DNA of 63,611 nt, the filler included, from Sanchytrium tribonematis (Eukaryota): NCBI GenBank assembly GCA_018985235.1. It is 25 parts of 25 records of this genome, joined end to end, with 100 filler letters (N's around TTAATTAATTAA, not from the genome) between each part and the next. Parts side by side here need not be neighbours in the genome. Positions count along the whole stretch, not along the records: positions 7,759 to 9,580 come from JADGIG010001197.1; positions 9,681 to 27,866 come from JADGIG010000118.1; positions 27,967 to 29,777 come from JADGIG010001198.1; positions 29,878 to 31,686 come from JADGIG010001199.1; positions 31,787 to 33,591 come from JADGIG010001200.1; positions 33,692 to 35,493 come from JADGIG010001201.1; positions 35,594 to 37,393 come from JADGIG010001202.1; positions 37,494 to 39,288 come from JADGIG010001203.1; 17 more parts are not named here. One strand, 5' to 3'. The position numbers and the translations under genes were made by a program. Shown in pieces: positions 8,846-56,210 of the stretch. How positions within the stretch are numbered: position 1 is the first letter of the stretch; each line of letters starts with the position of its first letter. The notes beneath the pieces were generated by a model that did not search any database, was not told where the DNA came from, and saw only the letters and a program-made list of their open reading frames with translations.

Positions 8846-9580
8846 TTATTGATTTTTAAATTTCTTTTTGTAAGTCTCTACATCCTTATCTAAAGCTCGT
8901 TTTTGAGTGTCGGCCTTTTCCATGAACGCGTCTAATTTTTTAAGGTCCTTTGAATCTTTGGTTGTATTTCTAATTTGTTTCCCTACTTGCTGCATAACTG
9001 TCAACACAACGCTTAATTGATTAGGTAACCAAGTAACAATTGGGCTGCCACCAGTAGCTAATTTAGTATAAGATACCAACAGGATGATTTGAATATTTAA
9101 TAATATATTCTTTTGTGAAATTCCAATGTCTGTGTCGAAAATCTCGTACTTGATCCAACAAACTCAGGTATTTTAAGCTACTTTGAACATCTTTCAGGGC
9201 GTATGCCTTCACTCCTAGTTTCTTACTTTCATTTTCCACAAAAGTCAACCATTCAGTGTGGGCATGGGGACGATAAGTTCGAAAGTCTTTCAAAATCTGG
9301 GTCAGTGGATTGTCTGGCATCACATTGGTGATTTCTAATAGATTGTCACAAGTTGGGATAATAGAATCATTAGCACCTGATTCACCACGATAAGCCTGGG
9401 GATCTTTCGATACTCCTTCATAAATCACGCCATTTGGAAAAATTTCCTCTTGATTTTTGATTCCCATGATGAAAGTTCTAAATCTATTATAATCTTGCGG
9501 TTTACTGGCTGCCCACATGGTTTCCATAACGATATTAATTTGATTCATGGTTTTGGTTAAATTGTCGATTGCTGAATTGA
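8846..9580 (-). CDS. Indoleamine 2,3-dioxygenase family protein, 3' part, 2 exons
   Basis: YRGESGANDS, FRTYRP and RHWNFTKEYIIK motifs. Splicing out 9058-9076 restores HPVATGGSPIVTWLPNQL. Confidence 0.88.
9058..9076 (-). other. 19-nt spliceosomal intron (IDO)
   Basis: GTATCTTATACTAAATTAG; removal fuses two ORFs into the conserved HPVATGGS. Confidence 0.9.
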
Positions 9581-9742
9581 NNNNNNNNNNNNNNNNNNNN
9601 NNNNNNNNNNNNNNNNNNNNNNNNTTAATTAATTAANNNNNNNNNNNNNNNNNNNNNNNNNNNNNNNNNNNNNNNNNNNNGATGATATTTAAGAAATGAA
9701 TAAGAAGAGAGAGTGACTTTAATAAACATTCGTTATTATAAA

Positions 9743-12700
9743 ATGGAGATGATTCAACCTACTATTTCGGATTTCAGTCGATCTATGAGTAAATACGACC
9801 CCGAGAAGGTGAGTTTTAAAGGATGGCTAAGCGCATTTGAGAAGAAACTTGGTCTTTACGACATTGAGCGTGAAAAAGACAAGATTCGTTTATTAATTAA
9901 TGGCTTGCCTCAAAAATGGGAACTCTATGCCATGCAACATGGGGAGGATCAGGATGGTCGATTAAGCTATGAAAAGATAAAAGAAGTCCTTCGAGAAAAA
10001 TGTTTGGAGGAGGTGAGTTTAGAAGATTTTTGGGATTTGAAAATGGAAAGAGATGAGAGTGTCGATGAATTTGCAGATCGTTTGAAACGAATGTCAGAGG
10101 ATCTCCGTATTGATGAGAAAACAGTGATTCGCCAGTTTCGTGTATCTTTGAAATTTGGAATTCGAGAAAGAATGAGTGCGATGACATATTCCTCATTACA
10201 AGAAGCCGTGTGGAGTGCCAAAAATGTGGAACGAGATTTAAATGAAAAGGCAAGGTATACAAAAGCATTTAGTGATCCAAGTGGAAAATGCAACAAGTGC
10301 AATGGCGAGCATAAAGGCAGATGTGTGAGATGCTTCAAATGTAGCAATTGGGGACACAAGTCTGAGCAATGCACTACTACCAATCCGGACATCAACAATC
10401 TCGAAATTGAAAAAATAAATGTTGAAGAGTATGTGCCTGGTTTTATTAATGATGTTGCATTTAAGATTATGATAGACACAGGAGCAAGTATTACCGTGAT
10501 CAATGAGAAGAATTTTGGCAAGTTAAAGTTGGATTTGGAAAGCACGGATGGGACTGTCTCAGCGGGATATTCAAGTATTGAAATTTTGGGTACTAGCGCA
10601 TTAAATGTGAGATTGCAGAATAATTTAGAATTCGAGCAGATTTTTCATGTTTTGGAAGGGGAATTTCCAAAAATCCCCATAATTGGTCGTGACTGTCTTT
10701 GTGGTAAATTGAATGCGAAATTGGAAGTGCGATTGGAATCAGTGAATCTTCTAGAAACAGATCAAAACAGGGAGTTTTTGGAGTTGTTAGATGGAAAATT
10801 GAGTCATTTAAGTGTAGAAGATAAGAATGAGGTAATTGAAATTGTATGTAAATATTCCGTCGATAATACAAAGCCGATAAATTTACCACCTGTGAAATTT
10901 GAATTAAAACCTAATGCAGATTTGAGTGCATTGCAACAGAAACCATACAAGGAACAGCACCAGGAAGAAATGCAGCGAATTATTGAAAAGGGGATAAAGA
11001 ATGGCCATTTTAAACATGGTATTTCAAGTGTGTCGTCTCCCGCATTTCTCGTCAAAAAGCCAAATAACAAAGGGTGGCGACTCGTAATCGATTACAGGCT
11101 TCTAAATACTCAACTATTGAAGACGGGACAGCCATTGCCAATAATTATTGATTTACTGAACTCAGTTCATGGCTCAGAGGTGTTTAGCGTTTTCGATCTC
11201 GAAGACGGCTTTCACCAATTGGGTGTGGATGAGGCCACTGGTAAACTGCTTAGTTTTGTGACATCTGATGGAATGCAATACGAGTTCAACAGACTGGGCC
11301 AAGGTGCATCTCCTAGTCCTGGCATCTTTCAGTATAATTTGTTGACCATTTTGAAACAGTTGAAGAATATGGGATTATACATTGATGATTTATTGCTCCA
11401 CGATCGAGATATGACAGCCCATAAAGCACAATTGCGGGATTTAATTGGTATATGTAATGAATATAATCTCAGAATTAACTGGAATAAAGCACAATTATGC
11501 AAAAGTAGCGTCGTCTATCTTGGATTTGAATTGGATAAACATGGATTTAGACCTAAGGGGGAGTATCTGAATGAATTACATACACTAGCAAGTCCTCGCA
11601 ACAAAAAGGAAGTGCAGAGACTGATTGGGATGGTGAATTGGATCAAGCAGTTTGTGAAGGGATATGAGATTCTCATTCAACCAATTCGACGACTTCTTAA
11701 AGTGGATAAGTTTAAATGGACCACAGATGCAGAAGAGGCATTTCGCAGCATCATTACTCAAGCTGAAAAGACAGATTTGAAGTATTTTAGTAGTGGGGAT
11801 TTCGATCTTTATTGTGATGCATCGAAAAGTGGGATCGGTGGAAGTTTGTATCAAAATGACAAGCTGGTTGCATTATTTAGCAAGTGCTTAAGTGATACTG
11901 AGTCTTCATGGAACTCATTTGAAAAGGAAATGATGGCTGTGCAATATGGACTAAACAAATATGGTCGATTTATTGGAAATCAGTTAGTACGAGTGCACAC
12001 AGATAATGAAGCAGTAGGTTACTATATTCAAGGATACGGGAATAAGACATCTCCCAAGGTGCGTCGCTGGATAGAAACAATCTTGGACTATAATGTGGAA
12101 TATGTCAAGATAAGTGGAAAAGACAACACCCAGGCGGATATTCTAAGTCGTATGCCTCATCAATCAACTCCTTCTATTAATGTTGTTGATCTAGATGTTG
12201 AAGATGGATGGATTAATAATTTAGAAATGGTGTGTGCAGTGGAAACTCGCTCAAAGAGAAAATTGCAAGAATTACATGATTCTGATGATGTGCCAAATCA
12301 TGAGCAGTCTAAAAAGCCACGGATTGAATATTCTGCTGCTCTGCCAGTGTCTGTTGTGGAGGAACCTGTTAGGGAGGAATTTAATGATGAATTGAGATGT
12401 GTTTGTAACTCTAAATTGGAAGTTGACACATTAATACAATGTGATATTTGTGATCATTATGTCCATAATACCTGCTATGGATTACCAGAGAACATGGAAG
12501 GAATGCCATTTGAGTGTGAAATTTGCGACCAACATCAAGCAGAGAATCAAGGAGAACAGCCATCAAACAATCAGGAGTTCAATGATTTACTTAAATACTA
12601 CCATAGAACACACCCTGGCATCAATGCAATGCAGATTCTAATGAAATCAATTGATTATCCCAACAAGTTCCAGTTAATTGCACAATATGTTAATCGTTGT

Positions 12701-13375
12701 AAATTATGCAAGGAGAAGAGGATTCCCATTCAGAGCAAAATGACTCTCAGAAAACCCAATGAAATTAATCAGATTGTGGGTGCTGATGTGATGTACACAG
12801 ATGATGAAGATTATCCATATGTTTTAATAGTGAAAGAATGTGTCACTGGATTCACTCATTTAGAGCCATTGACTAGCAAACAACCAGAGGAGACCTTACG
12901 TGGTCTACTTCATTATATTTCCAAAGTAGGGATACCAGAGCAAATTGTCTTGGACGGTGGAACCGAATTTCTTGGAGCATTTAAAGCCTTTTTGGATCAA
13001 GAGGGCATCAAATGCAATCCATGCACCAAGTCAATCCATCGTGAAAATGGGCTAGCAGAGAGAGGCATCCAATATGTACAATCCATGTATAGAATTATTA
13101 GACAGGAATACCGTGAGTTACCATTTACTACTCAAATGGCGTTGTGTAATCATTGGATCAATTATAATCCCAAGTCGTTTGGATATTCTTCACAGCAAAT
13201 GATGAATTTATTGTTTAAATCTGATATTAATACTAGTGATCTGAGACAGCAGATTATTGGTCGCATTAATGCAAAGAAGGTCAAGATTGAGAATAAGTTG
13301 AATAAGAGATTACGCAGTGTAGAACTGGAAGTGGGAGATTCAGTATTTTACTATAAGAAAGAAGGGTATCGCTAA
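9743..13375 (+). CDS. Gag-Pol polyprotein (gag, Zn knuckle, protease, RT, RNase H, PHD finger, integrase)
   Basis: CFKCSNWGHKSEQC, IDTGA, YIDDLL, YCDAS, a C4HC3 finger at 12398-12526, and HHCC plus DDE integrase motifs. A TAA at 13373 interrupts the integrase C-terminal domain, which continues in frame. Confidence 0.93.
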   Translation: MEMIQPTISDFSRSMSKYDPEKVSFKGWLSAFEKKLGLYDIEREKDKIRLLINGLPQKWELYAMQHGEDQDGRLSYEKIKEVLREKCLEEVSLEDFWDLKMERDESVDEFADRLKRMSEDLRIDEKTVIRQFRVSLKFGIRERMSAMTYSSLQEAVWSAKNVERDLNEKARYTKAFSDPSGKCNKCNGEHKGRCVRCFKCSNWGHKSEQCTTTNPDINNLEIEKINVEEYVPGFINDVAFKIMIDTGASITVINEKNFGKLKLDLESTDGTVSAGYSSIEILGTSALNVRLQNNLEFEQIFHVLEGEFPKIPIIGRDCLCGKLNAKLEVRLESVNLLETDQNREFLELLDGKLSHLSVEDKNEVIEIVCKYSVDNTKPINLPPVKFELKPNADLSALQQKPYKEQHQEEMQRIIEKGIKNGHFKHGISSVSSPAFLVKKPNNKGWRLVIDYRLLNTQLLKTGQPLPIIIDLLNSVHGSEVFSVFDLEDGFHQLGVDEATGKLLSFVTSDGMQYEFNRLGQGASPSPGIFQYNLLTILKQLKNMGLYIDDLLLHDRDMTAHKAQLRDLIGICNEYNLRINWNKAQLCKSSVVYLGFELDKHGFRPKGEYLNELHTLASPRNKKEVQRLIGMVNWIKQFVKGYEILIQPIRRLLKVDKFKWTTDAEEAFRSIITQAEKTDLKYFSSGDFDLYCDASKSGIGGSLYQNDKLVALFSKCLSDTESSWNSFEKEMMAVQYGLNKYGRFIGNQLVRVHTDNEAVGYYIQGYGNKTSPKVRRWIETILDYNVEYVKISGKDNTQADILSRMPHQSTPSINVVDLDVEDGWINNLEMVCAVETRSKRKLQELHDSDDVPNHEQSKKPRIEYSAALPVSVVEEPVREEFNDELRCVCNSKLEVDTLIQCDICDHYVHNTCYGLPENMEGMPFECEICDQHQAENQGEQPSNNQEFNDLLKYYHRTHPGINAMQILMKSIDYPNKFQLIAQYVNRCKLCKEKRIPIQSKMTLRKPNEINQIVGADVMYTDDEDYPYVLIVKECVTGFTHLEPLTSKQPEETLRGLLHYISKVGIPEQIVLDGGTEFLGAFKAFLDQEGIKCNPCTKSIHRENGLAERGIQYVQSMYRIIRQEYRELPFTTQMALCNHWINYNPKSFGYSSQQMMNLLFKSDINTSDLRQQIIGRINAKKVKIENKLNKRLRSVELEVGDSVFYYKKEGYR

Positions 13376-13525
13376 TTGGGACAAATCTCCCATTTGGCAA
13401 AAGTGTTGGAAATTACTAGAGATAAACAATATCTTATTGAATTGCAAGAAGATGAGCATGAAGTCTTGGCACACCCATCACAACTAATTAAGATTGAAAA
13501 TGAAGAATGGGAATTGGGGGAGGAT

Positions 13526-13730
13526 TGTATAATGAATTCAAGTGAGTTAATCCCCATCCATTCATCTTTGAGTGACGTGAATGCGCATCAGACCACTCGT
13601 GATGCTCAAGGATACGTGCAACCGTCGTATGGACCCAATCAAGATGGATCAGATGATATTTAAGAAATGAATAAGAAGAGAGAGTGACTTTAATAAACAT
13701 TCGTTATTATAAAATGGAGATGATTCAACC
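13526..13730 (+). repeat. 3' LTR (approximate)
   Basis: Starts TGTATAAT directly after the PPT. The last 79 bp are identical to 9681-9759 and contain AATAAA. Confidence 0.75.
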
Positions 13731-14399: not shown

Positions 14400-15573
<1,174 letters not shown>

Positions 15574-18207: not shown

Positions 18208-19428
18208 TTATTTGACTGGCCTGCGAGGTTTGTATCCTGCTTTTGATGGTGGAGAGTCGGGAGCAAAATTACCACCGTAGTCAATATTTGTAGGGGGATT
18301 ATATGAAGGATGAAGTCTGTTTTCCAAATCACTAGAGTGATCTGTGGATTCCGAATCACTAGAGTAATATGAAAATTCCGAATCACTGGGTTTTCCCCAT
18401 TGTTTTATCTGTTTACGTGTTTTTTTTAATGCCTGCTCCATATCTCCTTGGGGTTTGGAAAATTGATCTTGGCTTCTTTTTTTACCAACATTTGGGACGT
18501 GAATATCTAACGTACCCGTTTGAGCATGAGATTCACCAATTTGGTGAGGTCGTGATGGAAATGCACTTGTTGTAATAATTGGATGATCTGTCCCAGATTG
18601 TTTCACCACTGCAGTTGATAAATCTATAACTTTTCCTTTTGCGCCAATGGCAATAATGGCATCAATTACATGACTTTTACCACCATTCCATCTGATTGGT
18701 GTATATGCCTTGGTTAAATATTTTAGAGGTAATAATTTTGATGTTTCACTGTGGTGGAATAAATGATTTTGTTGCTGTTGTTGAATATTAAAATCACCTG
18801 CAATAATAACATCCGTTTGTAAACTACCAGCTACTTGTAAAACACGTTTTAAATTCAATTCATTGTAATGATTTCTTTGGCCATAGGTTGGTTTTTTAAA
18901 ATGAACACTCATAATAGTTGTAAGTTGGCCATTTAAAATCACAGGACATGCTACGACCCTTCTAAAATTTGGATCTACTGGATTTAATGGAATTAAATAA
19001 GGCTCTGTGGCACTTATTTGTTTACTGGTGACAAGTTGTGAAGGTGGATTTGAATTTGGAATGGAGACTTTATCAGTATTGACCAATATGCCATTGACAA
19101 TATTAGAACCACTATTGCCTTGTACGACATAATGCCAATTAGAACCAGTTTTATATTTTAAATAGTCTGAAATGCCATTCATGACATTTTCAGCTTGTTG
19201 TGGTAATATGTTTACTATTTCTTGTACTGCTAGAATATCTGGTATATCTTGTGCATTAATTCCTTTAAATTTGCTTGCGACCTTTATGGGATCATCCAAA
19301 TTTTGCAGATTCAATGTGCCAATCGTTTGATAATTTGGAGGGTTAGATTGTAAATTTGAAGGAATAGAATCTTGAATCACGTTCAAGTTTCTTGAACTTT
19401 GAGCATATAACAACCAAAATAGAATCAT
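18208..19428 (-). CDS. Secreted EEP (DNase I-fold) protein 1
   Basis: MILFWLLYA leader; GTLNLQN, LAVQE, SVHF, AGDFN, IDAI and TDHP motifs; basic low-complexity tail. Confidence 0.87.
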   Translation of the reverse strand: MILFWLLYAQSSRNLNVIQDSIPSNLQSNPPNYQTIGTLNLQNLDDPIKVASKFKGINAQDIPDILAVQEIVNILPQQAENVMNGISDYLKYKTGSNWHYVVQGNSGSNIVNGILVNTDKVSIPNSNPPSQLVTSKQISATEPYLIPLNPVDPNFRRVVACPVILNGQLTTIMSVHFKKPTYGQRNHYNELNLKRVLQVAGSLQTDVIIAGDFNIQQQQQNHLFHHSETSKLLPLKYLTKAYTPIRWNGGKSHVIDAIIAIGAKGKVIDLSTAVVKQSGTDHPIITTSAFPSRPHQIGESHAQTGTLDIHVPNVGKKRSQDQFSKPQGDMEQALKKTRKQIKQWGKPSDSEFSYYSSDSESTDHSSDLENRLHPSYNPPTNIDYGGNFAPDSPPSKAGYKPRRPVK

Positions 19429-19699
19429 GGATCACTTGGGAAAGATGTCTTTTTTAATTTTAAAAGTTCCACTCACAGAGTCTGAAATATCTGAAATGGT
19501 AAATTGATTGGACGACACAATTGAAGCGAGAATGTCAATTTAAAAGAAATAGTTTGATTTATTTGATATATCTTGGTTTTTGAAATCTTGTCGATATTCA
19601 GAATTCAAAGAATTATATTCGAGAATAAAATTATCTTATTTAGAACAAGAATTAGAATATCACACCTCTTATGTTATCACTTGAATCACCAATTGGCTG

Positions 19700-20060
19700 G
19701 GCTTTGACTTGTTGCGCTAGGTCCCTCATGCCATTCACCAACAATTGGAATTTTATGCTTGTTCACTAATATGCCATAAACGTGTATAGATTTAGTGCCA
19801 TCTTCTACAAAATAGACCCATTTCTGTCGAGTCCAACAAGTAAAAAGTCTATATATCCATCCATCAAAGTTTTAATATTTGGTCCATTGATAATCTCCTG
19901 AATTGACAATATTTCAAGGCAACTCCTCAGCTTTCATGTTCAAAAACTTGTGATTAAGTTCATTTACAAATTGAAAGTTCTAATATTCACTAATAATAGA
20001 ATCTTGCTTCTCAAGAGGTGCTAATTTTGCTGCATACAGCACAAAAATCAATAGAATTGC
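19700..20060 (-). pseudogene. Degraded fifth copy of the secreted EEP family
   Basis: Fragments in different frames (ILLIFVLYAA, ILSIQEIINGP, KWVYFVEDG..VYGILVNKHKIP) match the neighbouring EEP genes; stops and frameshifts present. Confidence 0.75.
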
Positions 20061-20118
20061 AAATGTCTGAGCTGTCAAATTTTGAATCAAGAAAAATAAA
20101 TAAAATTAATTTATTATA

Positions 20119-21174
20119 TCATGTCGCTCTAGTCAAATAAGAAGTCCTTGGCTGCTTGACTTGATACTTTTTAGATGGTTGATAATAATGAGTGAGACTT
20201 TCTGGCTTTCTCTTCGATCCAGTGACTTTATTGTTTTCGTTATATGCTTCATTCCCTGGGTCCATAAAGACTCGATTCCATTGACTCCTTGAATACCATG
20301 GATTCCCTGGGTTCACTTGAATAGTAGCACGAGGTATATATGCTGTTGCAGTCAGTAATGGATGATCGCCACCAGATTGTTTCAAATTAGCAGATGTAAC
20401 TTCCATCATATACCAATGTGCTCCAATTGTAATAATTGCATCAATTGTGGCCATTCTATCTTTCCAATAAGTAGGTGTATCTGATTTTTTAAATTGCTTA
20501 TGTTGCAATAAATGGTTTGTTTCACGATTTTGTAACAAAAGATCAAGACGCTGTGGAAGAATATTCAAATCACCAGCTAGTATTACATTTGAATGCAAGT
20601 GACCAATGACTTGAAGAACCATTTTTAAATTCAATTCGTTTGTAGTATCGCCATTTAGGGATCTTTTGAAATGCGCACTTAAAAATGTAATTTGGTGATT
20701 ATCTAATAAAAGTGGATACGCAATCACACTTCTTACAGTCGGATTATTGAAACTAAGTGGTATTAAATATGGTTCTGTTAAACTTGGAACTTGACTAGTC
20801 ACCATTTTGGATTCTCTTATAGAAACTGGCACTCGTTTTGTATTTATCAAGATTCCACTCACAATCTGTGGCAATGGATTTCCTTCTACAACATAAATCC
20901 ATTTATCTTGAGTTTGTTCATTTAAATAGTCAACGAGGCCATTCATGACATTTTGAACTTGTAGAGGAGATTCATTTATAATTTCTTGAATTGCCAATAA
21001 TCTGGGTAAATCTATTGATTGAATGCCATTGAATCTATTAGAAATATCGGATGGATATTTCAGATTGTGTAGATTAAGGGTACCTACTTGGACAAATCCA
21101 CTTTCTATTTCATCACTCTCTCCTTGTAATTCTGGTAGATTTTGTGATGCGTGAAGTAGCCAAAGTAGTATCAT
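20119..21174 (-). CDS. Secreted EEP protein 2
   Basis: MILLWLLHA leader; GTLNLHN, LAIQE, SAHF, AGDLN, IDAI and GDHP motifs. Confidence 0.87.
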   Translation of the reverse strand: MILLWLLHASQNLPELQGESDEIESGFVQVGTLNLHNLKYPSDISNRFNGIQSIDLPRLLAIQEIINESPLQVQNVMNGLVDYLNEQTQDKWIYVVEGNPLPQIVSGILINTKRVPVSIRESKMVTSQVPSLTEPYLIPLSFNNPTVRSVIAYPLLLDNHQITFLSAHFKRSLNGDTTNELNLKMVLQVIGHLHSNVILAGDLNILPQRLDLLLQNRETNHLLQHKQFKKSDTPTYWKDRMATIDAIITIGAHWYMMEVTSANLKQSGGDHPLLTATAYIPRATIQVNPGNPWYSRSQWNRVFMDPGNEAYNENNKVTGSKRKPESLTHYYQPSKKYQVKQPRTSYLTRAT

Positions 21175-21386
21175 TAGACGATCTTGCTGGGATTCCTTTT
21201 TGAATATCTGGGATTCCATTCACAGAGCCTGAAATATCTGAAATGTCTGAAATGTCTGACATAGCAAATTGGCTAACCAACACTATTCACACTGTTTTGT
21301 AGACTTGAGGATGATTTATTTGTGAGACTGGATCTTGGAATTCAAACAAAGCAAAGAAATTGTAAAAATTTTGAAATTTATTTATA

Positions 21387-22319
21387 TTATCCCGGTGCCA
21401 ACGTAACTCTAGGCACTCCAGCTTTATTTCCAGTTGAATAGTTTGGTCTATTTGCAGTTGTTGTACTGGCTGTGGGAGATCCTATGAAAGTAGTAAGAAA
21501 TGGATGATCAGATCCACTTAAATGTATTTGGGCCTCAGATGTGTCCAAAAAGTACTTCAAACCATCACTGGTTGCACCTAATGTAAGAATTCTGTCTATA
21601 ACATTCGCCTTTTCATTTCCTCTAAAATATGTTTCAGGGCTTTGTGCCTCTCTGATATGTCCTTTTGATATTTTCATTTTTGCCATCAATTCTTTGAAAA
21701 GAACAGGATGTATGTTTGTATCACCTGCCAAAATAACATGACGATTTAATTTTTCAGCTTGTTCCAAAGTATCTTTAAAATTTTGAATATTTAATATATT
21801 TTTTGGATCTCTTTTAAAATGAAAACTGGCAATTAAGTATTGATGACCATTCAATTCAATCGGTAATGCGACTACACTTCTGACTGTTGGATTGGTGCGA
21901 CTTAGTGGCATTAAAAAGGGAAGACGTGGATCAAACAAAGATGGCTGTTTTCTTGTTATAAATGTTGATTTTAATTTGAAAGATGGGATCTTTTTTCTGT
22001 TAACTAATACGCCATTGACGACGGGTGGACTCTGTTTTCCATTTGATCCCTCGAAAAAATAAACCCAATCGCCATCTGTCCTAAAATTAAGATATTTTGT
22101 AAGAGAATCTGCTACGCTTTTAGATTGTGGTCCAGTCACAAATTCTTGCACTGCAATCACATGAGAATTCAAATCTTTTACTTCCCCCAAACGGCTAGAA
22201 ATTGCTCCTGTATTTGCCAAGTTTTGTAAATTGAGCGTACCAACGGATAATGCTCCTGATAACAAGGTTTTAGCAAGAGGAACCACATTCAAAGCATGTA
22301 TTAAGAATATCAAGATCAT
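21387..22319 (-). CDS. Secreted EEP protein 3
   Basis: MILIFLIHA leader; GTLNLQN, IAVQE, SFHF, AGDTN, IDRI and SDHP motifs. Confidence 0.87.
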   Translation of the reverse strand: MILIFLIHALNVVPLAKTLLSGALSVGTLNLQNLANTGAISSRLGEVKDLNSHVIAVQEFVTGPQSKSVADSLTKYLNFRTDGDWVYFFEGSNGKQSPPVVNGVLVNRKKIPSFKLKSTFITRKQPSLFDPRLPFLMPLSRTNPTVRSVVALPIELNGHQYLIASFHFKRDPKNILNIQNFKDTLEQAEKLNRHVILAGDTNIHPVLFKELMAKMKISKGHIREAQSPETYFRGNEKANVIDRILTLGATSDGLKYFLDTSEAQIHLSGSDHPFLTTFIGSPTASTTTANRPNYSTGNKAGVPRVTLAPG

Positions 22320-22463
22320 TTGCGACATTGCATTGAATTTCTTTTCAATCCCAAATTTGTCTGAAATGGCTGAGATTGCCTGAAATTGTCTGAATTGAAA
22401 AGTGATTTTAAAACACCTTGAAATAATTTTAAAGAGCAACCAGATATATTATAATAATTTTAT

Positions 22464-23222
22464 TCACAAATATCCACTCTTAATGGGACTTTCGAAATTA
22501 ATTGATTCTAAACTTTTCTGATAAATCTCATGCGTGTCCTTCAATCCAGCATAAAAACTAATAGCAGCATGTAATCTTAAGAAGAATGGAATCGCATAAA
22601 ATAAATTACTAAAATCTGTCAATTGAAAAAATGATAAAAATGACATGACACAATCTACACAAATTAATGCACAAAATATCATTGGTACCAATGCCATATG
22701 AATCAAAATATCACCAATCATCAGTTTCTTTATATTTTTCATCAATAAAGTGAATAAAAATGACTCTAAAATCAAATAATATAAAAATTCAATCCCCGTG
22801 TAAATATTGTAATAAAATCCATTTAATCCATCATCTACCCCATAAACTTGTAATATATATACAATCACATCACCCAATAGTACTAAACACGTCAAAATTG
22901 CCATAATTTTCATGACAAGTGATATTTTGTGTCCCATATAAAATTGATCTAGTCGTTTAAAATATAACCAGAAACTAATTAAAACGGCTTGTGGATATAA
23001 AGATGCATCTATAAATACAATTGTCGTTGTAATATCTGGATTCCAATAGTTTTCTGTCATGCTTAAACACGAAGAAATCATTAAACAAGTCAATGCCCAA
23101 CTAATTAGTAAAGGGACCTTGTTGATGTTGTTAAATAGTCGATAAATGGTTAATATACCTGTAATATACAATCCAAGACTCAGACCAAGTATGGTGTAAG
23201 AAGTCGATTCATAAAAATCCAT
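22464..23222 (-). CDS. Probable seven-transmembrane protein
   Basis: Seven hydrophobic segments of about 20 aa in a 252-aa protein. Confidence 0.7.
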   Translation of the reverse strand: MDFYESTSYTILGLSLGLYITGILTIYRLFNNINKVPLLISWALTCLMISSCLSMTENYWNPDITTTIVFIDASLYPQAVLISFWLYFKRLDQFYMGHKISLVMKIMAILTCLVLLGDVIVYILQVYGVDDGLNGFYYNIYTGIEFLYYLILESFLFTLLMKNIKKLMIGDILIHMALVPMIFCALICVDCVMSFLSFFQLTDFSNLFYAIPFFLRLHAAISFYAGLKDTHEIYQKSLESINFESPIKSGYL

Positions 23223-23273
23223 CTTTTAAAACAAGCCACGATCCATATTTTACAAATCACAATGGATCTGAAT

Positions 23274-26240: not shown

Positions 26241-26712
<472 letters not shown>

Positions 26713-32443: not shown

Positions 32444-32549
32444 GAAAATACAGGGATCAATATGGGATAAAACAAATGACGTCACAACTGTGTACAAAAT
32501 GACACCATATTGTATCCCGTGATACATCATTTGACATGTCATTTGGTGA

Positions 32550-33224: not shown

Positions 33225-33266
33225 TTTTGCAAATACTCCTCTCGTTTAAATAGGGGATCCAATCAT

Positions 33267-41180: not shown

Positions 41181-41483
41181 NNNNNNNNNNNNNNNNNNNN
41201 NNNNNNNNNNNNNNNNNNNNNNNNTTAATTAATTAANNNNNNNNNNNNNNNNNNNNNNNNNNNNNNNNNNNNNNNNNNNNTGCGAGTGCAGTCAGTTATA
41301 CGAATAGACCAGTCATTATAAAGCAAGAAACATGTGAAAAAGTGGATGTGGACAAGATCCATGCACATTACAAGGACATTTTAGAAGAAGAACGATTTAA
41401 AAGTCAAATGGCGATTAAAAATTTGGAAGATGAGATTGTATTTTTGAAGAAAGTACATGCCACTAGTAAATAATATGCTTTAT

Positions 41484-43070
41484 TTATAAATTGGACATTT
41501 GATTCACTCTAGATTTTGCAGAGTTTCTTCTAAAGGGTGTTTTGACAATAATAATGCCTGTGAGGAAACTACCAATAATAAAATGTATTCCCAACATGAT
41601 AATGTTTAAATTTATAGTAGTTTGACTCCGTGGGTTGTTAAACTTAAAAAAGGTTTGCGTCAAAGATTGACTGTTTTCAGTTTGACTTTTGTTTACAAAG
41701 ACAGTTGTGGAAACAAGAGATGATTTAGTGGCAATGGATGTTAACTTGGTAGCTGTTAATCTTGTGAGAATTGCTCTAGTTGGCACTACTGGATTATATT
41801 CTGTCAAATTGTCATGTTTACAAATTGGCAATAAATTGTCTAAATTGTTACTTTGTGCCAACATATTGAAACTAATGTCACAATTTGTTAATGAACTGGT
41901 ATCTTGGACTATAACATCATGGAATCGATTGTTGGAAATAAGCAGCGTATTTGGAGCACTTAACTTTAAAACACCTGAAAATAAATTTCGTGAAATTTCA
42001 ACTCTTCTCAAATTGATTGTAGCAGAAGCATCAATATTTCCAGAAAAATTGTTATCTGTTATAGTCAATTCTTCGAGTGATGCGGGAAGTTTTGGAATAT
42101 TCCCACTTAAATGATTATTATCCAGATACAAAACTTGAATATTTGGAGGGAAAACAATTTGTGATGCATTTCCAAATCGATTGCTTACAATCGCAACATA
42201 AGAAAGCTGACTACTGCTAAGATCTGGTAAATTGTTAAAATTACCGCCACCCATGAAAACAGCTTTCAATGATTTAGGAAATGGTGGAAAATCACCTGTA
42301 AAATAGTTATTGGCATATCTGGCTTCTTCCATATTTTTAGAGAATTTAATTGGCCCCGTTAAATATAAACTCTCTATAGACAAATATTTTAAACTGTCTG
42401 GTAGATCTGGAAGCTGTCCAGAACATTTTGTATTTATAAGCGCCAGCCATTGCAAATTTAGTGGCAAAGTCACATTTTTTAGATTTCCAAAGATATTACT
42501 ATCATGGAAATTCGCCTGTATCAACTGAGATGGCCATACAATATCTTCGATATTGCTGTTGATTTGAGTCTCGAACACGCTGAAATATTGCAATGAATCT
42601 GGTAGATTTTTAATTTGGCCTTTAATTTGATTGAAGCCCATGTAAAACTCTTTAATACCATTTGGAAGCTGAGGGAGACCATCAGTAAATCTGTTAAATG
42701 ACAAGTCTATAAATTCAATTGCATTGGGAAATGGTAAAGTCAAATTTGTAAATTGGTTCACAGTGACACTGAAAATTTTCATTTGAGGTGGCAACAAAGG
42801 AATTGTACCTGACAATCGATTACTGCCTAATTGAATTGTTTGCAAAATATTTGGCAATTTACTCAATGTTCCAGAAAGACCAGAACCAACGGCAGAAAAT
42901 GTAACCAAATTATTTGGCAAATTTGTTGGAAATGGCTGAGTAAACGTATTTCTATCCGCATTGAAATTGCTTAATGCACTAGCTGAGCTAAAGTCACTAG
43001 GAAAACCTGTAAATCTATTGTCAGAAACATCCAAATTTAAAAGATTTGAACCCAACGAGGGAATATTTCC
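41484..43070 (-). CDS. LRR receptor-like protein, 3' part (LRRs, S/T stalk, one TM, short basic tail)
   Basis: LPxxLxxLxLxxNxLSG repeats, CDISFN cap, TM IIMLGIHFIIGSFLTGIIIV. Confidence 0.88.
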   Translation of the reverse strand, partial: GNIPSLGSNLLNLDVSDNRFTGFPSDFSSASALSNFNADRNTFTQPFPTNLPNNLVTFSAVGSGLSGTLSKLPNILQTIQLGSNRLSGTIPLLPPQMKIFSVTVNQFTNLTLPFPNAIEFIDLSFNRFTDGLPQLPNGIKEFYMGFNQIKGQIKNLPDSLQYFSVFETQINSNIEDIVWPSQLIQANFHDSNIFGNLKNVTLPLNLQWLALINTKCSGQLPDLPDSLKYLSIESLYLTGPIKFSKNMEEARYANNYFTGDFPPFPKSLKAVFMGGGNFNNLPDLSSSQLSYVAIVSNRFGNASQIVFPPNIQVLYLDNNHLSGNIPKLPASLEELTITDNNFSGNIDASATINLRRVEISRNLFSGVLKLSAPNTLLISNNRFHDVIVQDTSSLTNCDISFNMLAQSNNLDNLLPICKHDNLTEYNPVVPTRAILTRLTATKLTSIATKSSLVSTTVFVNKSQTENSQSLTQTFFKFNNPRSQTTINLNIIMLGIHFIIGSFLTGIIIVKTPFRRNSAKSRVNQMSNL

Positions 43071-46944: not shown

Positions 46945-48727
46945 CGAGAGAGTATGAGCCAGCAGATGAAAAGTGGTCGGACTCCATACCATGTTTTGCG
47001 GCGCCACCCTCAGGGGTTCGGTTCCAGGACATGCCGGACTCACACACCACAGTGAAGCGCGGCGAGCGCTGTCAAGACTGCCACGTCTAGGGGGCACGTC
47101 GTGAGCACTGAATGGGGGCCCCCCTTCAGTCGCAACGAACTCGCCATGAGCCAAGCTGGTGATGAACCCGGTCTAGCTGCCAAACTGGCCAAGATGACGG
47201 TCGCGCAAGTAAATGAGATGCTAGATGAGCTAGACGAAGAGCTGGGTCCGTGGACGGATGGAGAGACCGCGTCCATGCTCTTCAGTCCAGCTACTCTTCA
47301 CATGTATGCAAATGCACGCATGGATGAGGCGGCAGAGGCCGATTGGGGCTTACCTGCCCCTAGCAAGGCCGCAAAGAGAGCACGAAAGAAGGCACGAGTT
47401 GCAGCCAGCACCATCGAGCAGCCTGGGGGCGCCATCCCTCCGTCACGCGCTGATGAGTCGTCTGAGGCTGTTACCGAGCCGCGCCGCAAGCGTACACTCA
47501 ATGAGCAGAGCCACGTACTGGTGTCACAGCGCGCTGAGGGACACCCCCTTACGCCTGCAGCACTCAGCCGTGAGGCTTTTATAGAGCTACAGCAGAGAGA
47601 CGCGTTCAGGCAGGCAATAGCGCGCACGCTGAGAGAGGGGACTTTGCCCCAGGACGGCGAGCTAGCGCTGCACTTGATGATGAACAGGGACTGGTATTGC
47701 TTAGAGGAAGACGGACTGCTGGTGCACCTGGCCACCAGCCATCCCAAGCGCGGGACTGTGCTGCGCCAATGGTATGTACCAACAGCACTTCGCGCACTGG
47801 TGATGAGGCTTGGGCTAGCGCTACTCACTTGCGAATCTTTGAGCGCTTTTACTGGCCTCAGATGGGCAATGATGTACGCACCTACGTCACCATCTGCATG
47901 GCATGTCTGCAGCGTAAGAAAGCGACCACTAGCAAGGCCCAGTTGATGTTGACGCTGCCAACTCGCATGTTTCAGCGAGCGCACACTGACATCACTATGA
48001 CCTCAGTGACGTCCAGTGAAGGGCACATTGGATTACTCACAGTGATCGAAGCGCGTTATGGGTTCTGTTGGCTCATGCCAATCAAGAACAAAGACATGCT
48101 CACCACTTCCAAACTGCTCTACAAGGTGATCCTTGAGTCAGGGTCGATGATACAGGAGTTGGTGTCAGACCAAGGAGAAGAGTTCTTGAACGCAGTGGTG
48201 AGCGACCTGTATAAACTCTTCAAAATCAAGAAGATCGATACCAGCGCATACTATCCGCAGGCCAATGGTGTGGCCGAGCGCCAGAATGAGAGGATCATGG
48301 CAGCATTGACTATGTGGGTCAACGCCACCCAGAAGAATTGGCATGAGGGCATAGAGGCCGTGCAATACGCGATGAGGGCGACCCCACGAGAAGACACTGG
48401 GCTCAGCCCCTTCTTCTGCGTGTACGGGCGCGAGCCGTCAGTGCCCTTTGCGACGTTCACTTGTGGCAGCGGTAGGCAGAAGTGTGCAAAAATGCATGTT
48501 GAGCACTGTGGCAACAGTTGAAATTGAAGTTGAACTTCAAGTTGAAGTTGAAGTTTGAAAAATGTTGAAGTTGAGGTTGTGCAATGTTCAACACACTCCA
48601 TTTGAGGTTGAGACTGGTCTAGAGTGGATGCTCAGCGGGCCGCGCTGAGCAATGCTGCATGCATGTCATCTGGTTAATAATCACTGAACACCCAAAATCA
48701 TGGAATGAAGACTTCTTCTTGTTCAGC
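46945..48727 (+). mobile_element. GC-rich contig with a degenerate Ty3/gypsy integrase region
   Basis: ERFYWPQM..VRTYV.IC.AC, LVSDQGEEF, TSAYYPQANGVAER and TGLSPF motifs; frameshift near 47815; base composition unlike the other contigs. Confidence 0.85.
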
Positions 48728-49736: not shown

Positions 49737-50472
49737 TTATTCTTGATCCAGAATTCTTGTCATGTTGGCTTCCACCTCAGTTTCCTTTAGAATCACAAAC
49801 TCTCCGTCTTTGAGTAAAGCGATTTCTATTTCTTTTGGCTTAAGTTCAGATCCAATAACACTCATAAAGGATGTGAGGCACGAATCCAAAGATTTAACTA
49901 AATAAATTGAAAGTACCTTTCTTGTCAGAAGAAAATAATTTTTCAAGATGATTGAGGGCCTCTTGTTGTTTTTGCCCTGATGAAGTAGCTTTGTACTTAG
50001 CATAATGACCCGCAGGATCAATCTTAAATAGCTCTGGGTTGTTAGAATCATCATAACCAATAACTAATAGAGCGGAGCCCGGCAAGCGCATTCCAGCGTA
50101 CTGCGTTCCCATTTGGTTTCTATTAGCAATTTTTTTTACAAGTAGCTCGACCGGAATAGGATAGCCAAATTCGTATTGAAATCCAGCAGCTTCCTCGCGG
50201 GCTCGTGCGACCATCAACTTGCCATCAGGTATTAAACCAGAGATACAGCAACCAATATGTCTGTCTAATTTGTGCATTGAAGTGACCGTATTTGGATCCA
50301 TGAGTTTTGAAGGTACTTTCTTTTGTGTAATCAGAACAGCATTCCCTTCAGAAGTTATACCAATGCAAGTATTCTGGGAGTTTGTTATAGCTTTAAATGC
50401 GTATTCAACCTGGTATAAACGACCCTCTGGTGAAAATACTGAAATATTTCGATCAAACCCCGAAGTTGACAT
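49737..50472 (-). CDS. SCL1: 20S proteasome subunit alpha-1 (PSMA6/Scl1), 2 exons
   Basis: FDRNISVFSPEGRLYQVEYAFKA and FKIDPAGH motifs. The C-terminus is restored by removing 49898-49916. Confidence 0.93.
49898..49916 (-). other. 19-nt spliceosomal intron (proteasome alpha)
   Basis: GTACTTTCAATTTATTTAG; removal gives DKKVKSLD..SVIGSELKPKEIEIA. Confidence 0.88.
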
Positions 50473-50738: not shown

Positions 50739-52248
50739 CTAAAATTTACTAAACATTGACAATCTTGTAGCATCTCTCTTGTATGGCAATTTGGCCAAAA
50801 TAATTCCAATAAATATTAAATTGATGCCCAATTTGACCAGCATTAAATATTCGAATCGAATGGCTTCTAGCTCTGATTTACCCTCCCATTTGATCAAGCT
50901 GGTGATATGTAAGCTAGTAATTCTAGTAGAAACCACAGATTTTATATTTACAACGTTTTTTGAAAGTGTATTTGTTACACTTTTAGAGGCAATATTAGGT
51001 CCTAAAATAGATCCTAAATGAATACAAAATACGTGTGACTACTGAGTTCGAATCGGCTTCCAGGCTAGATAGGTCAGAAACATAAATAACAGAAGAAGCA
51101 AAATTCAATTCACTGTTTCTGTTGCTACTACTGCTGTCGCTATTGGTAATTACTGCCGCAGATGCAACTGTAGATACATCACATTTTATACCAGGATCAG
51201 CGTACGCATTAGTAGAGCTGCATTTACTGGCGAATGATTTTGCAGAAATCGTGTTTAACATTGGATTATTGCTCAAATCACAGGTAGAAATGGCAGTCTG
51301 ATTCAAGACATTCACATCAGTGATTAAATTGGATGTCAGATTCAATACAGTAGGCGCCTTAAAGGTTAATTCACCCCGCAATCGATTGTCACTCAATTTG
51401 CAAGTAGAACAAACAAATGTCGTATTTTGGCATCCTGTGAGCGCATTGGAGTTAAGTACTAGAGAGCCATTTACTTGAGTTGCATATTGCGCTGGAATAG
51501 GACCAGTCAATTGATTAAAATCAAAAAATACATTGACTACTTTTGGAGGCAATAGGGGTAAATTGCCAGTCAATTGATTATTTGAGAATGATAATCGCGT
51601 CAAATTGGCAGGGAATGGCCCATTTAATGTTCCAGTAAAATTGTTAGAATCCATTAAAATACGTGAGACTGAATCTGGAAAAGTTGGTACATTTCCTTTA
51701 AATTGGTTTTTGTTACCAATGATCTCAAGCAACGTACTTGGGAATGTAGTCGTAATCACTCCACTCAATCGATTTTTCTGAATATACAGATACTGCAAAG
51801 TAGGTGGAAGTGATGGAATATTTCCAGTTAATGCATTTACACTAAAATCGATCAATTTCAACGTATTTGGTAGATCTGTTGGGATACTACCATAAAGAGC
51901 ATTATTAGACAATACTAAATCTACCAATGGGGCATTAATTGCGCTAGGGATCGTAGAATTCAATTTAATATTGTTCTTTAGAGTCAAAGACGTTAAATTT
52001 GGCGGAATATTCTTATTCAAAAGCGTACCATTGATGTTCAGGTTCTTGATTTCTAATGAAGTTATACCAAATCCACCACATGTCAATTGAATTCCATTAA
52101 TAGGAAAATAAGATATGAAGCAGCAATTAGCTGGAATGGAGTTATAAAGCGTCGCATCTGTATTATGCATGTTCAAATCTCTCAAAAAACTCATTAATAC
52201 CTGACAATCTTGAAAAGTCGTGCCCATAATCACGAAATTTAAAAGCAT
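50739..52248 (-). CDS. Complete LRR receptor-like protein, 2 exons
   Basis: DC..L..F..LN..PANCC cap, LRRs and stalk. After removing 51014-51032 the frame reaches a TM segment and tail like those of the 41484 paralog. Confidence 0.87.
51014..51032 (-). other. 19-nt spliceosomal intron (LRR protein)
   Basis: GTATTTTGTATTCATTTAG; removal joins the ectodomain to the TM exon. Confidence 0.85.
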
Positions 52249-52582
52249 TTTCTGAAACTTTTGGCCTGCTATAAAATTCAATTTTTTTGAGACTCAATAG
52301 AATTTATTTTGTTGTTCTAAATAAGAATATCGCATCATCACTTGTTGTAAATTCATATTTGGCATCTCCTCATACCGAATATCATCTCCATTTATCCATC
52401 GAATCCCAAATATCATTTTACAGTAAGAAAATAACAAATTTGGCATATCGCATTTTAGCCAATATTGATCTCCCACACGATTNNNNNNNNNNNNNNNNNN
52501 NNNNNNNNNNNNNNNNNNNNNNNNNNTTAATTAATTAANNNNNNNNNNNNNNNNNNNNNNNNNNNNNNNNNNNNNNNNNNNN

Positions 52583-52701: not shown

Positions 52702-52736
<35 letters not shown>

Positions 52737-53230: not shown

Positions 53231-54348
53231 TTGACCTCAACTCAGGCGAGACTACCCGCTGAACTTAAGCATATCAATAAGCGGAGGAAAAGACACCAAC
53301 AGGGATTCCCTTAGTAACGGCGAGTGAAACGGGAGAAGCGCAACATGGGAATCGTGCCGCAAGGTTCGAGTTGTAGGGTTGCATTGTTTGCCTTGGGCAA
53401 AGCGGCGTGTAAGTCTCTTGGAACAGAGCAGCATAGAGGGTGATACTCCCGTGACGCGCCGCTGCGTCTGTGATGGTAAGCAATAGGCGAGTCGGGTTGT
53501 TTGGGAATGCAGCTCAAAAGGGTGGTAAACTCCATCCAACGCTAAATACTGGTGAGAGACCGATAGCAAACAAGTACCGTGAGGGAAAGATGAAAAGCAC
53601 CTTGAAAAGGGCGTTAAAAGAATGTGAAATCGCTAAGGGGGAAGCGTTGCCAGCGAGTGCAGTATGGCGCAGATCATGTATTCCATTGGGATGCTGCACT
53701 GTGTGTCGTACTGGTCCACATCAGTTTCGGCTGCTGGATGATCTTTCTGGAAGGTAGTGTCCCCGGACATGTTAAGCCAGGAAGGACGCAGTGGCTTCGA
53801 CTGAGGATCGCCGTGTACGTTTGCGTGACCTTTGATCTCTGAGGGATTACCGGCTGGTCCATTTTTAATGAGCTAGTCGAGTCGTCCTTCACCGGTTAAA
53901 CGGATCGCTCTACACGAAGGATGTGGGCGAAATCGCTTGTAGCGACCCGTCTTGAATTCGAGACTGAGAGTGGGCTCTGGAGCCTGCTAGTGGATATACA
54001 TCCGCGACACCGTCAAATTGCGGGAACACCCTTAGAGCTTTGACTACCAAGTGCAGCTGGAAACAGTTGCATGGCTAGGCTAATGACCCTAGGTACGGTA
54101 ACAACGTCAAAGATTGGGCAATCCGCAGCCAACTCCTACGTCACTAGATATGGAGGCAGTTCAGAGACTAAATGTCGGTGGTCAGCATCACGCTGGTTAA
54201 GATATAGCCCGTCCCAGGTCAAGCGGCCTGACTCAAAGAGTGGCATCACAGATGCTGGATAAACGGAAACACGGACCAAGGAGTCTAATAGACGTGCGAG
54301 TGGTAAGGTGGCAAACCTTGGCGCGAAATGAAAGTAACAGGTACGACC
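53231..54348 (+). rRNA. 28S rRNA 5' part, interrupted by a group I intron
   Basis: ACCCGCTGAACTTAAGCATATCAATAAGCGGAGG, AACAAGTACCGTGAGGGAAAG and GACCCGTCTT|GAAACACGGACCAAGG. Confidence 0.96.
53954..54265 (+). ncRNA. Group I intron (IC1-like), 312 nt
   Basis: P1 GUCUU/GAGAC with a U-G splice pair; P AATTGCGGGAA; Q AATCCGCAGC; R GTTCAGAGACTA; S AAGATATAGCC; terminal omega-G. Confidence 0.93.
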
Positions 54349-54448
54349 NNNNNNNNNNNNNNNNNNNNNNNNNNNNNNNNNNNNNNNNNNNNTTAATTAA
54401 TTAANNNNNNNNNNNNNNNNNNNNNNNNNNNNNNNNNNNNNNNNNNNN

Positions 54449-56210
54449 CTGTCAAAGTAGGTAGGTGGAAAAGGTGTTTTGTTCAAAGATGTAACCAATT
54501 CAAAATACTTTTCATAAACATTTCCATCATATCGTCCAAAAGGCGAGTTGATGATGAAGTCTGTGAATCCAAATGAGTCTGTAACTTTAATTGCATCCTG
54601 CCTTAAATCCGAGCATAATGTAGTGATCATCAAGGTTGCATTTTCGACATGTTGTGGAGTGAAATAACCAGCGGAAAGAAACTCGGAAGCCAATTCTTTG
54701 ACGCTGTATGTTCCGAATAATAAGCAAAATTTTGTCAAAAGTGCTTTTACCTGAGGCTGATTGTCTGGAACTTCTTTAACAGCTGTGTAGAATCTGCTGT
54801 ATAAATATCCAGTACAATGTATCTTAGCAGCATGAAATCTTTCAAAGGAGCATTCTTCAAAGGCATCTTCCGTACTTTTACCTTCTTTCACAAACTTTTC
54901 GAATAGTTTATAGGCTCTATTGACGGCATGAGCAGAGACCGCATTCCATGCAAGCTTTAAGTTTTCCAAAGTAAAAGCGTTTTCTGTGTGTTTGCTCTTC
55001 AGGATCTCGGGTAATTGATTCAAATAGCTAACTCCACTTGGAAGAGTTTTCCCTTTTAATTTTTCTCGGACGCATTGAATTAGATATCTTCCAAGCTGCA
55101 AAGTTAGAATTGTATTATCACCTTCCCAAGTGCATTGAACCGCAAAATCCGAGTATAAACCAGGGAGACCATTGTAAGCACTGTATCCATGACCTAAATT
55201 AAATTTCAATACCTCCGCAAGCTTGACGAGATTGATCAATAATGTTTAAAGTGTTCCAAGTACAAAATGCCTTCAATCCCGCGCTTGTTGCATGAGTTTC
55301 TTTCAATTCTTCTAGCAAAGCCTTGAGACCCTGTGGATTCGCTTTGTCTGCAGTGGGAAGCTTCTCAGATATAGATTCAAACATTTTATAAACTTGGTTT
55401 GCAGCAAAATGCATGGCCAAAGTTTGAGCCATTAAAGGAATAAGGCGGTGTTGATGTATTTGATAATCTAAAAGCTTTTTCTCTGGTTCCCCAAATTGCC
55501 TTCGAACGCAACCATATCTTACAGCAATCGTTAAAGCTTTCTTCGCGATATTGGCAGCATCAACCACCATGGTCACGCGGCCTTGAATCAAAGCACCATA
55601 TGACAATTGCTCTAAAGGAGGAACTGTTACAGTCCCATCTCTTGCCACTTTTGCATGTTTCATCAACATATAACTTCTGGGAATTCGGACATTAGTAAAC
55701 TGAATAAATCCGTTGTCAATGCCATCACGCCCCATTTTTTTACCAATGTCTCCAATAGCTACGCCAGGCAACAAAGTGTAAGTTTGTGGATCTCTTAAAG
55801 GAACAATAAAGACTTTGACTCCATAATCTTTGCCCTCTACAATTAATCTTGCGTAAACAGAGCAATGGGTGGCGCTGTGAGCCGCACCTCCAATCCACCA
55901 TTTCGTAGCCTCCAAATTAGGAGTATGAATCACGAATTCTTCCCTGTTTTTGTCATAGGTGGCAGTAGTTTGAATACCAGCTACATTTGAACCATGTCCA
56001 AGTTCAGTCATGCCAAAACATCCTACCATTCCTTCCAAGGTGAAGGCGCCTTTTGCAACCCAATATACCATTTGTTCATCAGTGCAACCACCTTGTAATG
56101 CACCTAAAAATAAACCATAATGAACCCCGAATCTTGTCCAAGTGGCAGGGTCATGTACACTCAGAATAGACATTCTGAATCTAAAATCGCCCAAACTTTC
56201 TGTAGTCACG
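54449..56210 (-). CDS. POX1: Peroxisomal acyl-CoA oxidase, internal fragment, 2 exons
   Basis: GCFGMTELGHGSNV, KWWIGG, RQACG|GHGYS and TWEGDNT motifs. Confidence 0.94.
55194..55212 (-). other. 19-nt spliceosomal intron (acyl-CoA oxidase)
   Basis: GTATTGAAATTTAATTTAG; removal restores the invariant RQACGGHGYS. Confidence 0.93.

Follow-up and report, generated by a model that had tools for sequence, protein, structure and literature searches.

The DNA analyzed here is a stretch of 63,611 nt from the sanchytrid fungus Sanchytrium tribonematis (assembly GCA_018985235.1; hereafter, the window), in which 25 small contigs are joined by spacers. The elements in question are six GT-AG inserts of 19 nt, very probably spliceosomal introns, which interrupt genes for indoleamine 2,3-dioxygenase (IDO), an ArfGAP, a FAM72/YPEH2ZP zinc-finger protein, proteasome subunit alpha type 6, an LRR-transmembrane protein and acyl-CoA oxidase (ACOX). 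All six 19-mers described in an earlier note on this DNA were found in place, identical to the letter and distributed over 5 of the 25 contigs as the note had it. All reside on the minus strand, a datum missing there.

Insert boundaries

Every GT-AG or GC-AG cut near each site was scored against homologs, the motif of the inserts not being used. In the IDO fragment (8846-9580, 5' end cut by the contig end; exons 9077-9580 and 8846-9057) the phase 1 insert at 9058-9076 ranks first of 77 candidate cuts, with a score of 360.1 vs. 289.8 for the next cut and 285.1 for the unspliced sequence (56 homologs). IDO exon 2 alone gave no meaningful match in PDB, and no broken sanchytrid IDO was found among the 150 representatives listed. 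The phase 0 insert at 14616-14634 in the ArfGAP gene (14400-15567; exons 14635-15567 and 14400-14615) is the best of 33 at 277.3, followed by a 22-nt GC-AG cut (276.3), the unspliced sequence scoring 217.5; the break is common to sanchytrid relatives. The FAM72-like gene (26241-26712; exons 26438-26712 and 26241-26418) carries a phase 2 insert at 26419-26437, the best of 66 cuts in the comparison with the intronless paralog at 31371-31685 (155 vs. 126, and 48 unspliced). Its exons match Pfam positions 11-65 and then 67-111, the split codon falling between. The proteasome alpha gene (49737-50472; exons 49917-50472 and 49737-49897) is interrupted in phase 1 at 49898-49916, the top of 40 cuts (297.0 vs. 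274.2 for the next and 267.3 unspliced; 83 full-length homologs). The phase 1 insert at 55194-55212 of the ACOX fragment (54449-56210, both ends cut by contig ends; exons 55213-56210 and 54449-55193) was placed by homology to PDB 5ys9. Exon 1 matches chain 5ys9_A up to residue 431 and exon 2 from residue 433 on, colinear and without gaps; here too the split codon lies between the exons.

The insert at 51014-51032, in phase 1 of the LRR-transmembrane gene (50739-52245; exons approximately 51033-52245 and 50739-51013, the latter with the transmembrane segment), is a probable one. A change of frame is required for a transmembrane tail like that of a paralog (hydropathy 2.25 vs. 1.08), and the boundaries were set by the motif. 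The notion that removal of the inserts restores conserved sequence thus holds by homology for five genes; in the LRR gene the transmembrane exon does need a splice, but the 19-nt boundaries depend on the motif. In these five genes the reading frame is restored by the removal of exactly 19 nt. All three phases are represented, and the unspliced reading of every one of the six genes runs into a stop 1-12 codons past the junction, so that retention is a frameshift, as the note had claimed. In DNA run X1, which may be the source data of the window itself, a 4,997-nt contig spans the ArfGAP intron without gaps, and a contig spans the FAM72 intron with zero differences.

Sequence pattern

Positions 1-3 (GTA), T12, A14 and positions 17-19 (TAG) are invariant in the six inserts, position 11 is always a pyrimidine, and A10 is found in 5 of 6, all claimed features being confirmed. 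The body of the inserts is G-poor and AU-rich, with at most one extra G. Four of the 15 interior columns are invariant, vs. 0.57 expected from the introns' own composition (P ~0.002). The string GTA-N8-T-N-A-NN-TAG occurs 8 times at 19 nt vs. 1.5 expected in Markov simulations, a count not independent of the six inserts, the motif having been defined post hoc. Strict matches number 2 at 18 nt, 8 at 19 nt, 3 at 20 nt and 0 at 21 nt. Excesses were also seen for the same motif class at 34 nt (5 vs. 1.6 expected) and for 13-nt GTA..TAG stretches (32 vs. 16 expected); both were dismissed as chance, no broken gene being found among those listed. A position-blind motif scan gave a single extra strict 19-nt match outside coding sequence. 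It lies at 24517-24535 (minus strand); an exonuclease-endonuclease-phosphatase gene starts 116 nt downstream of it, and the match could be either a 5' UTR intron or due to chance.

Positions 9-15 are in register with TACTAAC/yUnAy, the branch consensus of fungi (in part from PMC2483917), and the motif ends five bases before the intron end. The pyrimidine at 11, T12 and A14 occur in all inserts and a pyrimidine at 15 in 5 of 6, so that five of six fit yUnAy. The IDO insert matches TACTAAC at 6 of 7 positions, with A14 as the branch A. The potential pairs with the U2 sequence GUAGUA number 4-5 of 6 per intron. The choice of A14 as likely branch point, made in the earlier note, is supported by this register. 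No insert has a G at +5.

Length, density and placement

The five introns fixed by homology are all 19 nt long, as are all six named ones. Five equal lengths would arise by chance with a probability of 0.012 if three lengths were equally common, and of 0.004 for four. Introns number 6 per 54 genes or gene fragments, about 0.12 per kb of coding sequence (CDS), and all six reside in the last 40% of the CDS (0.004 under uniform placement), opposite to the 5' bias of microsporidia. Detection may contribute to this placement, but the position-blind motif scan gave only the one further match at 24517-24535.

A de novo intron scan was noisy. It missed the FAM72 intron, its long candidates mostly bridge adjacent ORFs by coordinates, and long introns, of which the earlier note had found none, or 5'-proximal ones may have escaped it. 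The scan left one 20-nt candidate, a possible seventh intron at 60704-60723 (plus strand), where an IS1595-like transposase ORF ends. It has GT-AG ends with C as third base, an A at -6 and a terminal TAG, and its removal opens 43 more codons of the ORF; no Pfam match was found in frame downstream, and homology support is absent.

Host lineage and sanchytrid relatives

The contig carrying IDO also carries an intronless RPS2/uS5 gene (8029-8817, plus strand), the product of which is identical at 261 of 262 residues to the EukProt protein of S. tribonematis, at 83-86% to the three best matches and at about 70% to other fungi. The RPS2 of the window, that of Amoeboradix gromovi and four ENA proteins form a clade with support 100/100. 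The GC content of the window is 34%, that of S. tribonematis 34.64% (PMC8371127). The fungal lineage assumed earlier is therefore borne out, and is sanchytrid; sanchytrids are described as a separate lineage, sister to Blastocladiomycota (PMC8371127).

The named sanchytrid proteomes derive from TransDecoder runs on assembled genomic contigs (PMC8371127). Since these proteomes read through introns, truncated tails reveal the position and length of the latter, and the introns explain why public sanchytrid proteins stop early at identical places. EukProt holds the unspliced proteasome alpha and ArfGAP products of the window, cut at the introns, and both of the intron-bearing genes checked in EukProt Amoeboradix are likewise truncated at introns. 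The prediction that annotation would miss these introns was correct. The proteasome alpha of all three DNA-derived sanchytrid relatives (P0125 from Amoeboradix, P0126 and P0127) ends at 186-190 aa, other fungal matches being mostly of about 246 aa; their tail residues allow only G at position 1 of the intron and only A at position 3. The ArfGAP of all three relatives (P0248 from Amoeboradix, P0246 and P0247) ends at 325-329 aa, and Val (GTN) is the first intron codon in each. P0244, a proteasome alpha encoded on a 931-nt JGI contig and clustered at 90% with the broken P0126, has no break; its alignment to the spliced product of the window covers 208 residues and is gap-free, 37 of the 53 exon 2 residues being identical. 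Such colinearity would be expected of a spliced mRNA and counts in favour of introns, although an intronless gene may fit as well.

Intron lengths in relatives rest on back-translated protein tails, a procedure which recovered correctly the two introns of the window used as control. The Amoeboradix ArfGAP (P0248) gives 19 nt, with A forced at -6, a TAG end and then 5 of 5 exon 2 residues. P0247 gives 20 nt and 4 of 5 of the following exon residues, an A at -6 being allowed. For P0127 the length is 20 nt, provided that the stop is the acceptor; position -8 is then T, and A is forced at -6. P0246 gives 15 nt, or a stop within a longer intron, and the tails of P0125 and P0126 start with G-(T)-A and leave length unfixed. 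The A at -6, present in all six introns of the window, is thus forced in Amoeboradix ArfGAP and P0127 and allowed in P0247. The claim of a fixed 19-nt length stands for the homology-fixed genes of the window, but not across the group, where P0247 and P0127 fit 20 nt.

Among metagenome loci for proteasome alpha, 79 of 80 are covered across the homologous junction by a single match, and no locus is broken at it. The 80 loci were taken from 287, all are at most 55% identical, and many are possibly transcripts; for this reason they have no bearing on whether the intron position is ancestral. No DNA of sanchytrid relatives was found in the viral and prokaryote collections. The metagenomic proteins P0001, P0002, P0122, P0123, P0126, P0127, P0244, P0246 and P0247 represent several sanchytrid lineages beyond the two named species.

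Spliceosome components

The Amoeboradix eggNOG sheet (PMC8371127, supplementary file 4) was searched to its end by KO, KOG and gene name; annotation by eggNOG reaches about half of the proteins, and genes are truncated by the ORF caller at these introns. At the level of labels, a major spliceosome is encoded. Labelled proteins include Prp8 (full-size), Brr2, Snu114, SF3B1, Prp5, Prp31, Cwc25, Isy1, Prp22/16 and UPF1 and, for site recognition, U2AF35, U2AF65-like, SF1-like, U1-70K, U1A/U2B'' and Prp40. Some labels are weak (U1-70K, E 9e-13; SF1-like, E 7e-10). U1-70K and Prp5 are also labelled among the Sanchytrium rows listed. The losses of U1 proteins, U2AF, SF1 and SF3b proposed in the earlier note find no support, the labels for U1-70K, U2AF35, SF1-like, SF3B1 and others speaking against them.

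No row was found in this sheet under the identifiers tried for U1C, Prp39, Prp28, Slu7, Prp18, Prp19 and SF3b p14. The blank rows may serve as leads only, because name searches also missed Prp40 and Snu114, recovered by KO searches, half of the proteome lacks annotation, and introns truncate the gene models. Two ORFs of one Amoeboradix contig (rows 445 and 451) both bear the Snu114/EFTUD2 label, which a gene split by a micro-intron would produce. No snRNA gene was found in the window.

Other features of the window

The LRR protein family is expanded in the window (39389-43070, 50742-52293, 56313-56789 and 58169-59919). At least two LRR proteins feature a Ser/Thr stalk and a C-terminal transmembrane segment, and the paralog at 41487-43070 is intronless before this segment. 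The LRR gene at 58169-59919 (minus strand) switches frame near 58650-58690, where no short GT-AG stretch fits; the site was rejected as a micro-intron and taken as a plain frameshift, due to a pseudogene or an assembly error.

Four diverged tandem exonuclease-endonuclease-phosphatase genes reside at 18211-24401 (minus strand), hydrophobic N-termini in most of them suggesting secretion, and three NIF-family phosphatase genes are in tandem at 31787-33590 (minus strand). The region 9704-13660 (plus strand) holds the gag-pol ORF of an LTR retrotransposon (protease, RT, RNase H), also with a PHD-finger match; one stop separates it from a further 95 in-frame codons. The rDNA contig (52583-54348, plus strand; GC 0.51) includes the SSU end, ITS1, 5.8S, ITS2 and the LSU start, with a group I intron in the LSU at 53966-54231. 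The sequence at 46945-48727 has integrase domains and a GC content of 0.55, vs. 0.30-0.40 in the other non-rDNA contigs, and is likely a contaminant or a host retroelement.

Class assignment and rival explanations

On every sequence test run (GT...AG ends, frame repair, branch motif) the six inserts behave as U2-type introns, and we regard it as highly probable that they are genuine major-class spliceosomal introns of a sanchytrid fungus, 19 nt long and with A14 as the predicted branch point. Minor introns have the consensus RTATCCTT at the 5' site and CCTTAAC at the branch. A U12-type assignment was rejected; positions 4-9 vary across the six inserts, and only IDO starts with GTATCTT. The two KO numbers tried for U11/U12 had no row in the eggNOG table. 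An origin from introners or another intron-generating transposon was also rejected, only 6-13 of the 15 interior bases being shared, with no flanking duplication and with positions common to sanchytrids.

Several observations weigh against the assignment to 19-nt introns, or against parts of it. The ArfGAP boundary is nearly tied with the 22-nt GC-AG cut, and in the LRR gene cuts of 46-112 nt fit the paralog equally well or better, so that homology leaves this boundary unfixed. Position 15 of IDO is an A and no pyrimidine, and the branch point is a prediction from sequence alone. The motif has little specificity, the lowest leave-one-out score being reached by 23 further GT-AG stretches of 15-30 nt, some of which overlap the six introns. 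A 19-nt look-alike ending in CAG lies within ACOX exon 2 (54797-54815, minus strand), and a 20-nt one ending in TAG at 6249-6268 (minus strand), where the unspliced frame is open for 148 codons vs. 9 if spliced; these 148 codons are the whole basis for its coding status. If such look-alikes are ignored by the spliceosome, length, TAG and low G would have to discriminate jointly. Lastly, six introns are too few to fix the genome-wide length distribution, the exact 95% lower bound on the share of 19-nt introns being 0.48 (5/5) or 0.42 (6/7).

The last point leads to a reading in which the introns are the same, but 19 nt is merely the mode of narrow or mixed lengths (e.g. 18-23 nt plus some long introns), on the pattern of nucleomorphs or microsporidia, the six having been picked by the length sought. 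We consider it rather unlikely, though to be taken seriously. The 20-nt fits of P0247 and P0127, the 20-nt candidate at 60704-60723, the small sample, the reach of the de novo scan, which cannot exclude long or 5'-proximal introns, and the few long introns that microsporidia retain beside those of about 25 nt all speak for it; five motif-free, homology-fixed lengths all equal to 19, the peak of strict motif matches at that length and the 19 nt of Amoeboradix ArfGAP speak against. Less probable still is a remodelled spliceosome devoid of U1C, Prp39, Prp28, Slu7, Prp18 and SF3b p14, reading the 5' site together with the branch in a single step, and the AG purely by distance. These six proteins, with Prp19, are rowless in the Amoeboradix sheet, G at +5 is missing from all six introns, and Cyanidioschyzon, which lost U1 and Prp28, offers a precedent. 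Yet the rowless identifiers were unverified, in a sheet subject to the gaps in annotation and the cut genes described above; both species carry a label for U1-70K, and Amoeboradix also ones for Prp40 and U1A/U2B''. Stentor, moreover, has all five snRNAs as well as the U1 core, and handles introns of 15-16 nt.

That the inserts are removed or bypassed with no spliceosome at all, by ribosomal frameshifting or hopping, tRNA-type or IRE1-type cleavage and ligation, or DNA elimination, is very improbable. A uniform length would suit an enzyme acting as ruler, but GT-AG ends with an A in the yUnAy register are a U2-type signature, all three phases occur, a simple frameshift would add six residues where homologs have none, and full-size Prp8 and SF3B1 are labelled in Amoeboradix. 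Even less credit is given to pseudogenising insertions, transposon footprints or assembly errors, largely refuted already. The window does contain transposon fragments and at least one true frameshift unrelated to GT-AG (the LRR gene at 58650-58690), but break sites are identical in four sanchytrid lineages, the second exon is intact in the proteasome subunit, a core gene, the ArfGAP and FAM72 inserts are gap-free in the run X1 contigs (with the caveat on their source), and no target-site duplication accompanies inserts which have 6-13 of 15 interior bases in common.

Proposed mechanism and significance

Splicing of these major-class introns would proceed on a core spliceosome retained rather than rebuilt. 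U2, through GUAGUA, would pair with positions 9-15 so that A14 bulges out. The 5' site is reduced to GUA and is probably aided by the G-poor, AU-rich intron body. Branching would close a lariat loop of 14 nt, or 15 nt in the 20-nt relatives, and the 3' AG, five bases past the branch A, would be chosen by its fixed short distance from the latter, with no polypyrimidine tract. For the second splicing step in yeast, Slu7, Prp18 and Prp22 are reported as dispensable below 7 nt (PMC3392075). The idea of a fixed 14-nt loop as ruler is weakened by the 20-nt relatives; as their extra base sits 5' of the branch A, the conserved measure looks like the branch-to-AG distance, as in Stentor. An mRNA retaining the intron, with its shifted frame and early stop, would be a likely target of nonsense-mediated decay.

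A broader proposal, which we offer tentatively and do not expect to hold in full, is that all introns of Sanchytriomycota are 19-20 nt long, 3'-biased and provided with an A at -6, the U1, U2AF and SF3b cores being kept and Slu7 and Prp18, perhaps also Prp28 and U1C, lost. It would be a case of independent convergence of an opisthokont on the geometry of Stentor, with a ruler differing by one base among species. Phylum-wide tiny introns, if true, would have been hidden so far because the ORF caller used for annotation was blind to introns. With 6 introns in 54 genes, about one in ten gene models of sanchytrids may be truncated, a point to be weighed in the gene losses and the 'reductive evolution' inferred from sanchytrid proteomes.

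The minimum length at which an intron still has its three sites (5', branch and 3') read is mechanistically an open question, and the known extremes (ciliates, mikrocytids, nucleomorphs) are all distant from yeast and human. With 19-20 nt and a legible branch motif, a fungal case would allow direct comparison with yeast spliceosome structures, and the use of yeast reporters. Relatives with 19 and with 20 nt offer a natural experiment in how the ruler is set, and the look-alikes at 6249-6268 and 54797-54815 are useful negative controls for what the spliceosome ignores.

Comparison with known tiny introns

No description of sanchytrid introns was found in the openly readable literature, subscription papers not being covered; in the main text of PMC8371127 the string 'splic' is absent and 'intron' occurs in a reference only. 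The sanchytrid introns would be the shortest of fungi among those found described, a rank on which Whelan and Fast 2023 (Pseudoloma) could bear. Most likely they are the fungal version of a known class of tiny introns, and work like those of heterotrichs, mikrocytids and nucleomorphs. The precedents listed in the earlier note did not include mikrocytids (16-17 nt).

The heterotrich ciliates Stentor coeruleus and Blepharisma (PMC9505925, PMC13685798) are described as having introns with a GUA start, an AU-rich body, a UAG end and a putative branch A fixed at -6, which in Stentor is the 10th base of 15 or the 11th of 16 (PMC9505925); there too introns are sparse (<0.10 per kb) and the spliceosome core is conserved. 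The lineages are unrelated, and heterotrich introns are 15-16 nt long and mostly 3n, in contrast to 19 (3n+1) or 20 nt in sanchytrids. Introns are 5'-biased in Stentor and Blepharisma and 3'-biased in Fabrea, the six sanchytrid introns being all 3'-placed, and the sanchytrid branch region, unlike that of heterotrichs, retains a visible TACTAAC/yUnAy register. The mikrocytids Mikrocytos mackini and Paramikrocytos (PMC10245619) are parasites with introns of near-single length (16 nt in 217 of 224) and a minor class one base longer. Their introns of 16-17 nt are highly conserved in sequence and served by 17-19 spliceosomal proteins, according to the same source, and their metabolic genes are intronless; sanchytrid introns, in contrast, reside in ACOX and IDO, and many more spliceosomal proteins are labelled.

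GT-AG introns of 18-21 nt, typically 19, are also those of the chlorarachniophyte nucleomorph of Bigelowiella natans (PMC6009652, PMC2483917). This is the relict nucleus of an endosymbiont, with almost 900 introns in 283 genes and no discernible branch A, whereas the sanchytrid nucleus is free and intron-poor, with an invariant A at -6. Microsporidia such as Encephalitozoon cuniculi (about 25 nt; PMC6349667, PMC2483917) are reduced parasites related to fungi, with few short introns and a branch motif near the 3' end. Their introns are longer, extremely 5'-biased, mainly found in ribosomal protein genes and poorly spliced (PMC6349667); sanchytrids are a separate lineage, and the RPS2 gene in the window is intronless. 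Myxobolids and dicyemids (PMC13644364) are opisthokont parasites as well, with a 5' site reduced to GTa and U2AF retained. Their introns have a median of 22-27 nt (22 in myxobolids) and spread in length, and the distance from the A-stretch to AG grows with length (PMC13644364), whereas sanchytrid introns are of 19-20 nt with the A fixed at -6.

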